From Torpedo marmorata (Eukaryota), in NCBI GenBank assembly GCA_977017645.1, contig OZ360228.1, forward strand, positions 50,964,001-51,028,000: a DNA stretch of 64,000 bases, in the 5' to 3' direction. The translations under genes and the position numbers were made by a program. Numbering within the stretch: position 1 is the stretch's first letter; each line of letters begins with the position of its first letter. This document shows, piece after piece, positions 57,770 to 62,963 of this stretch. The notes beneath the pieces were generated by a model. It did not search any database. It was given only the letters and a program-made list of their open reading frames with translations, and was not told the DNA's origin.

Positions 57770-58846
57770 AGGCCATGATTCCCTCAGTGCTGGTCAAGAA
57801 GCTACAAACTCTAGGCCTCTGTACCCCCCTCTGCAACTGGATCCTTGACTTTCTCATCGGAAGACCGCAGTCAGTACGAATTGGAAACAACATCTCCTCC
57901 TCACTGATTATCAACACAGGCGCACCCCAAGAATGCGTGCTTAGCCCTCTGCTCTACTCGTTATACACCCATGACTGTGTGGCCAGGCACAATTCCAATG
58001 CCATCTACAAGTTTGCCGATGACACCACAGTTGTCGGCAGAATCACAAACAGCAATGAGGAAGCGTACAGGAGGGAGATAGATCAGCTCGTTGAATGGTG
58101 TAATGACAACAACCTTGCGCTCAACGTCTGCAAAACCAAGGAGATGATTGTGGACTTCAGGAGGAAGTCATGGGAACACGACCCAGTCCTCATCGAGGGC
58201 TCAGTAGTGGAGAGGGTCAAGAACTTCAAATTCCTGGGTGTCAACATCTCTGAGGATCTGTCCTGGAGCCTCCTCGTTGATGCAATCACAAAGAAGGCTC
58301 GTCAGCGGCTATACTTTGTGAGGTGTCTGAGGAGATTTGGTATGTCACCGAAGACTCTCGTCAACTTCTACAGGTGTACCGTGGAGAGCATTCTGGCTGG
58401 TTGCATCACTGCCTGGTATGGAGGCGCCAACTCTCAGGACAAGAGTAAACTCCAGAGGGTTGTTAACTCGGCCTGTTACATCACAGGCACCAGACTTCAC
58501 TGCATCGAGGACATCTACATGAGGCGGTGTCTTAAAAAAGCAGCCGCTATCCTCAAAGACCCCCACCACCCAGGCCATGCCCTCTTCACTCTGCTACCAT
58601 TGGGAAAAAGGTACAGGAGCCTAAAGACGAGCACTCAACGGCACAAGGACAGCTTCTTCCCCGCTGCCATCAGATTCCTGAATAATCAATGAACCAAAGA
58701 CACTGCCTTACTTTTCGTGCACTATTATTTATATTTTTTTATAGTAATGTCGTAAGATGGTTATAATATGAATGTTTGCACTATGATGCTGCCGCAAAAC
58801 ACCGAATTTCATGACTTGTTCATGACAATAAATTCTGATTCTGATC
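57770..58846 (+). mobile_element. Rex1/Babar-type LINE, 5' truncated with open RT frame
   Basis: 311-aa ORF with [21 protein letters not shown] and YKFADDTT; tail GACAATAAA(TTCTGA)2. Confidence 0.93.
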
Positions 58847-58979
58847 ACTGCTGCTTCCTCTCCTTTCTTGGAGGCTGAAGGTGAGCTTGCTAGAGAAAAC
58901 GTATGTAAGCATATAGCAGATATGAGAAGATATTGTCTTGTAGGATCATAGAAAATTCAACGATCTTCATAGGTATAAA

Positions 58980-59285
58980 CCTTCGGATTCAAGGTCAGTT
59001 TCTTTCCTGCTGTTTTCAGACTCTTAAGTTGACCTCCCATTGGTGAAAGATAATGCTCTTGCACTGTTTTAACTATATTTTTCCTGATTCCTTGTACTTT
59101 GTTTTTGTAACACTATACTCTGCACTCTTTGACTTACTGTTGCACTACACCCGCACTTTTGTTTTATTATTGTACTATCTGCTGTACTTACGTAAGTATG
59201 AGCTGACTTGCCTTGGTATTATGCAAAACAAAGCTTTTCATTGTATCTTTGTACGTGACAATAAACAATTCAATTCAACTCATTA
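58980..59285 (+). mobile_element. Rex1-type LINE extreme 3' fragment
   Basis: ggattcaaggtcagtttctttcctgctg (RFK-SFFPA) and GACAATAAAC(AATTC)n tail. Confidence 0.65.
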
Positions 59286-59299
59286 AAACACAAATCTAA

Positions 59300-59793
59300 G
59301 AAATTAGTAAAGGCTAATAGGCTCCAAAAAAGAAAACTGTGTGTGGAAGCAGATGTTCCTGATGAATATTTTGTGATTATCTTCAGGATAAAAAGGGGAT
59401 GATACTGATGTTGTAGAATTGGGAATATTGTAAAAACTCATACATAGCATAGTGAACGAGGATGTATTAAAGGGTTTTTATGATAATCAAAACATTGACA
59501 AATACCCAGGATTTGATGAAATATATCCCACCCTTTTGAAAGAAGGGAGGAAATTGCAGAGAACCAGTTGGATTACAATTTTTAACCTTGCCTGGCTACA
59601 GAGAGGTGCCAGAGGATTGGTGGACTGCTACTGTTGTATTGTTGTTTAAAAAGGGAGGAAGGGATAAACCACGTAATTACAGGCCAGTTCATTTCACTTC
59701 AGTGGTGGGGAAATTATTGAATCCATTCCAAAGGGCATTGTAACACTTCGGTTTTCAAAGACACAGATTAATCAGAGACAGTTGGCATGGATA
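59300..59793 (+). mobile_element. Degraded CR1 ORF2 fragment (continues ~60750-61160 and ~62966-63330)
   Basis: DKYPGFDEIYPTLLKE, tttaaaaggg...aattacaggccagt remnants. Confidence 0.7.
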
Positions 59794-60566
59794 TTTAAAT
59801 TTAAATTTAGACATACAGCACGGTAACAGGCCCTTCCAGCCCACTAGCCCGTGCCACCCAATTACACCTTCGCGAGCAAAGATCCAGGAAGGATCGTAGA
59901 CGTGGGCATGTCCTTCGAGCCTGCACAATGGATTTTTTTAGGTGGAGTGCAGTGTGTGCAGTACTGGCCCAACCCTTTTCACCCGGGGTTTATCTGCCAC
60001 GGCCTAGCAAGCTAGGACGGTGACAGCCAGGTCCTCGGATCGTAGGTGTTACGTCGGAGTATCCTTCTCCTAGATGGATGGCCTGACAAGGCTAACGAGT
60101 CCCATCTGCCCGGGTTTGAAATCAGAGTTTTCCTTCTCTTAGGCTGGCTGCCAACCAAGGCTAACGAGCCCAGCCTACCCATCCAGTTATACCGCCGGAC
60201 ACTCGGTCACGCCATGACGTAGCAAACTCAGTGAAAACGGGGGACACTATGAGAAGGTGTTGCTTCAGACGCAGTAATGTAGGAGAGGCCATTTGCAGTG
60301 ACCTCCTGCCTGGCAAGCTAGACAGTGGCCACGCGGCGATCACTACAACGAGAAAGGAGAGGCGATGTATTACGTGTGGACTTTGCCTGGGTGAGCGGGA
60401 CATCAGGCCCAGACCTCACCCAGCCCTTCCTAATTGACCTACAACCCATGTATATTTTGATAGGTGGGAGGAAACCGGAGCATCCAGAGGAAACCCACGC
60501 AGACACGGGGAGAACGTACAAACTTCTAACAGACAGCGCTGGATTTAAACCCTGGTCGCTGGCAAT
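59794..60566 (-). mobile_element. tRNA-derived SINE split in two (59794-~59867 and ~60430-60566) by an insert
   Basis: gccacccaattacac and taattgacctacaaccc are contiguous in the other SINE copies. Confidence 0.88.
59868..60430 (-). mobile_element. GC-rich non-coding insert, probably derived from an RTE-type LINE 5' UTR (non-autonomous element)
   Basis: Interrupts a SINE; contains two tandem units with TA(A/G)GAGAAGGA(A/T)A..CTC-GA, a motif I associate with RTE 5' UTRs; family assignment is from recall only. Confidence 0.5.
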
Positions 60567-60569
60567 ATA

Positions 60570-60748
60570 ACATAAGAACATAAGAAATAGGAGCAAGAGT
60601 AGGCCATCTCCGCTATTCAATGAGATCATGGCTGATCTGATGATAGGCTCATTTCCCCTTACCTGCCTTTTCCCCATATCTCTTAATTTCCCTACTTTGT
60701 AAAAATCTATCCAACCTTGTCTTAAATATATTCACCGAGGTAGCCTCC
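60570..60748 (-). mobile_element. CR1 3' end
   Basis: (CATAAGAA)n tail; IFKTRLDRFLQSREIKRYGEKAG peptide. Confidence 0.85.
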
Positions 60749-61163
60749 ACAGTGTAAAAGTGTTGCGCCAACCTTGCCATCCAATTTGATAAGGGACATT
60801 TATGTTTGACCAATTGAATTGTTTGAGGTAACAAGGAAATCAATGAACCAGTGTACTGGATGGATTTTTACATTGCAGTCTGGTCAAAACAGTAAAATCA
60901 AACGGGATCCAAGAAAAAAATTAATCCAACGTCGTTTAAATGGCCTGAAGCAAAGGGTAATGGAGATTTCATGACCAGAGGCCTTCATCATGGGGGTGCC
61001 ACCGTTTTCTCCTCAATTTCTTACTTATTGCAATATGTATTAACGATATGGACCTAAGTGAAGGTGACACAATAACGTTTGCAGATGTAACAAAAACTGA
61101 TCGTGTGATTGATAGTCAGGAATTAGATGGCCTTGCTAATTGGGAAGAAAAATGGCAATATTA

Positions 61164-62963
61164 CCGTATATTTTGGCGTATAAGTCGACTAGCAGATGTC
61201 AACCCCCCCTTTTCAGCCTCATTTTAATGGTTTTATTGTATATCCGGCGTATAAGTCGACCCCCAAAAATCGCGATGATTGAGCTGCTGGGCGTTGACCA
61301 GCGTATAGGTCGACCCACAACGATCGCGCTGATTGAGCTGCTGGCCGTTGTCTGGAGGTGATTGTTATCATGGAGGCTCCATTGAAACGATGAAAGTATG
61401 AGGCGAGTTTTAAATTAAAAGTGATAGAAATGGCCAAGAAAACCAACAACTATGCTGCTGCAAGAAAATTTGATATATATGAGAAGTTGGTAAGAGATTG
61501 GAGGAAGAAAAGAGACTTTAAGAAAAATACCAAAAAGGCAATGTTCGATGAGAAGAGGAATCACTCGTTGGCCAGAGTTGGAAAATCATGTCGCAGCATG
61601 GGTACGTGAACAGAGGCAAGATTGCTACATAGTCACCCGAAATAAAATAAGAACATTTGCACTGAAGTGGGCAAAGTCGCACCCAGAACTCAGTAATGAT
61701 TTTGAAGCTACAGTTGGCTGGTGCAACCGTTTCATGAACGGGAAAAATCTGGTATTACGACAAAAAACAAAAATTGCTCAGAAACTACCAAAAGATCTTG
61801 ATCATAAAATTGTAAGTTTTCACCAGTTTATTTTACGTAACCGGCAGAAACACAAGTTTGCATTGGCAAATATTGGAAACATGGACGAAACCCCCATGAA
61901 TTTTGATATGATAGGCAATAGAACAGTGGAATGGAAAGGTGTGAAAACTGTGCAAACCAGGAGTACAGGCCATGAAAGGACCAGGTTTACTGTGGTGTTA
62001 TCGTGGTTGGCCGACGGGACCAAGTTAAGACCCATGGTAATCTTCAAACATAAATTTAAACCTAAAATAAAATTCCCTGTTGGCATTTTTGTACATTTTC
62101 ATGAAAAAGGATGGATGGATGAAAATGGTGTAAAACTATGGATAGACAATGTGTGGAACAGGCGGCCAGGCGGTTTACGCAAGGAATGGAGTTTGCTGGT
62201 CTGGGATATGTTTCGTAGCCACTTAACTGAGAAGACTAAAAGTAGATTAGCACAACATAATACTTACATGGCGGTTATCCCAGGTGGTTTGACGTCTATA
62301 TTGCAACCTCTCGATGTCTGTTTGAACAAGCCATTCAAAGACCATGTGTGTGAAGAGTGGAATACATGGATGTCGAGTGCAGAAAAATCATTTACAAAAG
62401 GCGGGGCAATGCGTGCTGCATCGCTTGATGTGCTGTGTGACTTCGTGCTCAAGGCATGGGACAAAGTGAAAGTAGAGATTATAATAAAATCGTTTAAAAA
62501 GTGCGGTATCTCTTGTGCAATTGATGGTACAGAAGATGATTTATTGTGGGACACTGACGACGAAGGTGAAGCCGCCTCATCAGATACAGACTGGGACCTG
62601 TATGATGACTGTTTAAACAGTGAGAACCCGGATGTGCTTGCCGAGATCTTTGCCTCAGACGATGATAGTGAAAGTTATTTTTAAGGGTCCTAAATGTCTT
62701 GTTGTTTTCAATAAAAATGTCAATGAAAATTTGTTGCAGTCGGGTTTTTTTTTTGGTTTTTCAAGTGTCAACTTATAGGCCGAATCGGGTTTTCAAGAGT
62801 CGACTTATATGCCAAATCGGGTTTTCAAAGGTCGACTTATACGCCGAATCGGCGTGGAGTGGTTTTTGAACAGATTTTAAGGTCTCAAAAGTATATCTGG
62901 CGTATAAGTCGACCCCCGTTTTTTGAGGGTTTCAAGACTCGTCTTATATGCCGAAATATACGG
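61164..62963 (+). mobile_element. Full-length pogo-superfamily DNA transposon (DD35D, Passer/POGK-like)
   Basis: TA TSDs (61162-61163, 62964-62965); TIRs CCGTATATTTTGGCGTATAAG / CTTATATGCCGAAATATACGG; subterminal CGTATAAGTCGAC repeats. Confidence 0.95.
61370..62684 (+). pseudogene. pogo transposase (Brinker-type DBD, CENP-B HTH, DDE_1) with a stop at 61391-61393 and a frameshift near 61510
   Basis: KYEASFKLKVIEMAK..AAARKF..VRDWRK; WPELE..GWCNRFM; NMDETP, VWDMF, QPLD with 35 residues between the last two Asp; acidic tail. Confidence 0.92.

Follow-up and report, generated by a model that had tools for sequence, protein, structure and literature searches.

The window (the whole stretch of 64,000 nt of Torpedo marmorata DNA that was analysed) carries a SINE interrupted by a short retroposon, and within the retroposon lies a tandem pair of related units. 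The features are as follows.

59793..59867, minus strand: host SINE, 3' half.
59868..60426, minus strand: non-autonomous bipartite RTE retroposon, window copy, delimited by copy comparison; family length ~566 nt.
59868..59892, minus strand: 3' part of the window retroposon, derived from the final ~33 nt of its RTE parent.
59913..60039, minus strand: leader segment with two AviRTE PCR primer matches (compared by eye).
60044..60111, minus strand: unit 2, 68 nt, fold as unit 1.
60112..60180, minus strand: unit 1, 69 nt, in the order GGG-Y, P1, internal loop, P2, A, P3, purine loop, A-rich tail.
60124..60139, minus strand: unit 1 P3 hairpin, 4 bp, conserved AAGG loop.
60141..60176, minus strand: unit 1 long hairpin; P1 of 7 bp (60176-60170/60147-60141) and P2 of 3 bp (60161-60159/60152-60150).
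60180..60183, minus strand: 5'-junction hotspot seen in other family copies (family positions 244-247).
60181..60200, minus strand: weak hairpin (-5.9 kcal/mol in copy L266) that abuts unit 1 on its 5' side.
60389..60421, minus strand: putative 5'-terminal hairpin of the element, drawn from its layout.
60427..60557, minus strand: host SINE, 5' half, interrupted by the retroposon.

In the window copy, the final ~7 nt and the tail of the retroposon are missing, and there is no target-site duplication. The interrupted SINE, which we take to resemble the V-domain SINE of cartilaginous fish, has further copies in the window at 34377-34175, 30959-30760 and 43874-43691. An RT fragment (PF00078; 57709-58692, plus strand) and a DDE_1 transposase frame (PF03184; 61494-62684, plus strand) flank the region and are unrelated repeats. 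The 5'-terminal hairpin has a unit-like layout of a G-run, a 7-bp stem and an inner helix.

The retroposon is a dispersed repeat: 1179 first-look candidates were found in the 6.2-Gb genome, and a 27-nt pattern gave 414 exact matches, the first 100 of which supplied the detailed copy statistics. The ends common to 30 copies correspond to window 60426 and about 59861. A flank word of at least 8 nt was common in 42 of 99 copies, against 1 of 99 mismatched pairs, a target-site duplication signal; TAA or TGA followed the 3' end in 81 of 99 copies (microsatellite tail). One of the 100 copies, L300, is the full-length parent, with 4.1 kb between duplicated flanks; family positions 2-540 match L300 260-807 and positions 534-566 match L300 4339-4371, so that the short family joins the first ~535 nt of a full-length APE-RT element to its last ~33 nt. 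Domain searches of L300 returned PF00078 (RT, E 5.8e-12) and PF03372 (APE, E 3.8e-5, just under the cut-off), and both reading frames are broken in that copy. From its leader, tail and domain layout, not from an RT tree, we infer that the parent belongs to the RTE clade. The units occupy positions 247-383 of its 842-nt leader, in mid-leader and upstream of the ORF; the non-coding short family keeps both of them and drops the ~300 nt of leader adjoining the ORF.

The sequence of the units is already known. Kojima (2018) described a conserved 5'-UTR domain of RTE elements that is present also in R4 and Ingi elements and is kept by four bird SINEs, Pol III SINEs among its carriers, and left as an open question why RTE-mobilised SINEs retain a piece of the 5' leader (PMC5786205). 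By eye, unit 1 is near-identical to the RTE-4_NV, RTE-3_BF, AviRTE and OegopSINE segments in the supplement of that paper; the mid-leader position is also the same, and AviRTE has two copies. Unlike the present analysis, the text of that paper, in the portion available, has no secondary structure, covariation or junction analysis. The match to an already described motif, which the preliminary description had named as removing novelty, exists at the level of sequence, though not, in that portion, at the level of structure. A profile built from the units finds Ceph-SINE copies with E of about 1e-14. The window leader also matches the AviRTE primers at 17/21 and 15/19 bases (by eye), and the primer span is 127 nt here and 126 bp as published; the ~800-nt leader and ~40-nt 3' UTR given for AviRTE (Suh 2016) agree with L300 (PMC4844689). 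In contrast to the bipartite SINEs of AviRTE, as far as that source describes them, the window derivative has no small-RNA head and retains its parent's own 5' end (PMC4844689).

Within the window, the sequences and coordinates of the two units were as first written. The 13-mer common to them, CTCGTTAGCCTTG, occurs twice in the window compared with 0.13 times expected, and none of 100 shuffles gave two. The segments that had been called invariant are so between the two window units, and vary elsewhere among copies and homologues: unit 2 reads CCTCG in 13 of 30 genomic copies (counted by eye), and loop sequence is free to vary across homologues.

We examined the fold in 40 non-redundant complete units, hand-picked after repeats of one family, half units and decayed units were dropped, and aligned by MAFFT without fitting to structure. 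The stems drawn from the two window units (P1, the inner GCC/GGC, and AGAG/CTCT versus GGAG/CTCC) hold across this set: P1, P2 and P3 together were paired in 95.0% of 559 cells with 9 of 14 pairs compensatory, a level reached by 0/500 shuffles, and slid controls gave 30-40%. RNAalifold, unaided, returned the same 14 pairs. Since these helices covary, and since 37 G-U cells are compatible only with the sense strand of the element, a functional RNA fold in a non-LTR leader, as had been suggested, is supported. Helix P1 was the strongest against tree-aware nulls (0/200, even against the best helix anywhere); P2 (1/200) and P3 (0/200) stood out at their own columns only and did not beat the best helix anywhere (45/200 and 161/200). 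For some of the units the search pattern had itself prescribed P2 and P3, so that their pairing is raised and their variation lowered. The all-pairs test covered 2092 column pairs: helix pairs took 8 of the ten highest ranks, and a single pair passed family-wise significance. Single-sequence folding energies were unremarkable compared with shuffles (z -1.29, +0.59, -0.02). The units are thus predicted to form a three-helix RNA module whose base pairs are kept across distant animals.

The kissing loop or pseudoknot proposed between CCUU and AAGG is not supported by this alignment. None of its 4 pairs was compensatory, its two U-A pairs were broken in 7/39 and 12/40 units, and 56/200 tree-aware nulls reached its level; the CC of CCUU covaries instead with the GG of P2, and P3 with its AAGG loop sits behind a different domain in several elements. 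In loop-tail and loop-loop pairing generally, own partners were no better than swapped ones (174-410/500), a comparison that short or non-canonical pairs would escape. Two other candidates, a UC/GA tertiary pair (2 compensatory cells, 48/200 nulls) and a GG/CC closing pair (139/200 nulls), were compatible and unsupported.

Scanning of metagenomes with P1 left free gave at least 121 loci, of which ~24 had no unit context and were taken by eye as chance matches; two scans of viral contigs were without a match. Prokaryote assemblies yielded 25 loci, and 24 of these are Ceph-SINE-like sequence from host contamination; the assemblies labelled Rhodospirillales, Arenicella and Metamycoplasmataceae hold animal SINE/RTE DNA of this origin (L154-L164, L166-L178; L165). 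Among the matches listed in the profile search were arrays of up to three full units and a half. APE-endonuclease ORFs lie directly downstream of units in L059 and L080, and the spacing between unit and ORF varies, being a few dozen nt in L059 and as much as ~470 nt in L300. In L039 (1483-3037), two intact units and an RTE-like leader precede an ORF of RLE type, that is, non-RTE, the full-length relative of which has RT, a zinc knuckle and an RLE-type end and no APE (motifs by eye), suggesting a leader swap between clades. Ceph-SINE copies carry the unit behind another head. Units are kept by the short family, Ceph-SINE and the four bird SINEs alike, so their retention requires no Pol II promoter of the element's own and no translation.

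Two unrelated metagenome families begin at the unit, among the matches listed. In family A (L036-L152), 60 listed loci have flank; 46 of them begin at the first or second G, none of the 60 has a unit tail upstream, and the 15 non-TG flanks are mutually unrelated. Most of these loci belong to two assemblies, and some may be redundant. Family A is a ~330-nt retroposon with no tRNA-like head visible, inserted mostly into TG repeats (30/45 flanks). Five family B copies among the matches listed start 1-3 nt before the unit. These families led to a junction test in the T. marmorata genome, on 100 copies selected with a pattern that lies at the end of unit 2; unit 1 starts at family position 247. Full-length copies numbered 72 of 100 and keep the 246 nt upstream of unit 1. 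Among 28 internally truncated copies, 7 start at 244-247, i.e., 0-3 nt before unit 1, where 0.32 were expected and 0/200,000 simulations on a uniform null, itself crude, reached this; one more starts at -2 of unit 2. Among 30 copies selected on their 3' part, 6 were internally truncated, and 2 of these, from other contigs, started at 245-246. Smaller start clusters at 37 and 283-284 sit at 3' feet of strong stems, as RT stalling would give. Simple stalling at a strong upstream helix fits these two and is a poor fit for the main hotspot, since the helix before it is weak (rank 190 of 376), although a stable tertiary fold upstream is possible. Hairpins similar to this weak one precede units in several homologues (by eye).

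The new 5' ends at the unit edge are seen as DNA junctions, which other mechanisms can explain as well; the hotspot is predicted alike by the explanation we favour and by rivals to it. Of the functions first considered, a protein-binding module is the best reading as predicted from sequence, and our tentative preference, held at a little short of even confidence, is that the unit is an RNA module that acts in cis on the template, is bound by protein and also marks 5' junctions. On this reading the two units, tandem copies of the conserved RTE 5'-leader domain with the three-helix fold predicted from covariation, would give the template RNA a handle for protein binding, in cis, and so aid its reverse transcription and integration. 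P1/P2 and P3 may present the conserved unpaired purines to the protein, which could be the RT-endonuclease of the element or a host factor, the latter being considered because the module is portable between clades. Once reverse transcription had passed the module, the 5' junction would often be completed there, giving both the hotspot and the families starting at the unit; a tandem pair would bind with more avidity or withstand 5' truncation. Any explanation must make the unit useful to non-coding RNAs with other promoters, portable between clades, active as RNA and able to form a partial boundary, and a protein-bound module fits most of these demands. Given the RLE-type ORF behind the units of L039 and the domain in R4 and Ingi, recognition by an RTE protein alone cannot be the whole story. 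Counting against the module is the absence of any unit within 1.5 kb of 20 other RTE-type ORF loci of the genome, which may include 5'-truncated copies.

The R2 protein of B. mori provides a precedent: it binds a 5' RNA motif that is folded and has a link to second-strand cleavage, and that is reportedly not conserved beyond the silk moth (PMC12503042). The proposed principle of folded 5' RNA plus protein, tied to the completion of integration, is alike; as far as that source goes, the sequence, fold and protein class are unrelated, and protein binding by the unit is a prediction. No solved RTE structure was among the PDB hits.

It is rather unlikely, though deserving of weight, that the unit generates 5' ends by itself, as a device that needs no protein, and is either an exoribonuclease-blocking RNA or a new class of small ribozyme. 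In the former case it would be the first such RNA in a retrotransposon; in either case it would have been swapped among RTE, R4 and Ingi elements, and it would be enough to found promoter-less SINE families. As an exoribonuclease-resistant RNA, the first unit would stop 5'-3' decay of read-through or decapped transcripts, and the trimmed RNA would be retrotransposed. This would account for starts just before units 1 and 2, for families A and B with their unrelated flanks, for the arrays and portability across clades, and for a hotspot with so weak a hairpin upstream. The viral tandem xrRNAs, in the accounts available, are likewise compact folds in tandem, with new RNA ends at their 5' edge. 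We consider this possibility unlikely: unlike those RNAs, the units lie in a leader and not a 3' UTR, have no Rfam xrRNA hit and no pseudoknot signal between any loop and the tail, and Ceph-SINE copies have no hotspot (1/27 without the upstream part).

The unit could also be an internal Pol II promoter monomer, possibly dual in DNA and RNA like Pr77, with transcription starting at the first G. Family A has no other visible head, whole leaders appear to have been swapped into RLE elements, and full-length copies bear variable 5' G-runs (1-13 nt, mode 5, n=62) that are presumably due to cap copying. Kojima speculated that a regulator binds the domain, and the Pol III SINEs that retain it, as that paper reports, argue the other way (PMC5786205). 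With compensatory changes and G-U pairs that indicate single-stranded RNA, and hotspot copies that are mostly without an extra G (by eye), a promoter seems to us quite improbable.

A ribozyme was among the functions first suggested, and efficient self-cleavage is argued against because 72/100 family copies and 26/27 Ceph-SINE units retain upstream sequence, on the head side in the latter. A slow or regulated ribozyme of a new class, cutting at the 5' edge, would suit the precise starts there and the many conserved unpaired bases. We regard it as improbable, since those same copies, and the three-unit arrays with upstream units kept (among the matches listed), speak against it, as does the lack of any known ribozyme core. 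Rfam gave no match in window 58000-62000 (E<=10) and none on any unit of 20 homologous loci (E<=5), where the matches lay in the L165 simple repeat or outside units; the twister, twister-sister, pistol and hatchet models had no match in either set. The HDV L3 motif with P1.1 pairing, the hammerhead CUGANGA core and the twister loop motif were each found in 0/40 units. HDV-like ribozymes have an invariant catalytic C in the 3' joining strand; in the units, C-N-A-A stands in the tail of 31/40, and column 66 is C in 24/40. Use of 5' ribozymes by RTE elements has been reported (PMC5786205, PMC6765202), and the HDV-like ribozymes of R2, L1Tc and RTE, so far as PMC6765202 describes them, are similarly compact structured RNAs of non-LTR leaders, with 7-bp and 3-bp helices and a tie to 5' ends; they differ from the unit, which has neither the P1.1/L3 motif nor a covarying P2 of the HDV kind, is internal and tandem, and mostly keeps its upstream sequence. 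Least probable of these is ribosome recruitment, IRES-like in the parent (12 upstream ATGs in the leader of a decayed copy) and bringing SINE RNA to nascent RT as Alu does via SRP9/14, which the portability between clades and host-facing conservation would suit: the varying ORF distance speaks against it, it leaves the hotspot unexplained, and the IRES that had been suggested is unlikely as a sole role because non-coding derivatives keep the units without the leader next to the ORF.

New observations are the arrays, which reach three full units, the intact units ahead of an ORF of RLE type, the junction hotspot at the edge of unit 1 and an unrelated family beginning at the unit. The fold, the arrays, the hotspot and the unit-headed families appear to have no published description in the literature searched, portions of which were available; Repbase, Dfam and patents lay outside that search, and an earlier description of the fold is possible. 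A 69-nt, covariation-backed fold with a hotspot at its edge makes the question of leader retention testable, and for Rfam the unit represents a eukaryotic RNA family yet to be catalogued. According to the available part of PMC13708176, RNA-only gene-writing tools based on RTE elements are under development, with templates that carry both UTRs, and a defined 5' module could matter for template design if those elements carry the unit.

In L059 (~1200-1340), L042 (~990-1136), L096 and L146, a larger 5'-terminal domain, with no Rfam hit, ends in the unit P3 and tail (by eye); its closing stem changes in step between families, and an H-type pseudoknot is possible (by eye). The Bov-A2 and MAR1 segments in the supplement of PMC5786205 have an initial GGAG-AAGG and a possible P3-like hairpin with a longer loop, and wider homology of this stretch is possible. 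A second family in the T. marmorata genome (L032, L179-L182, L184, L186-L191) has a single unit with the inner helix ACC/GGU.
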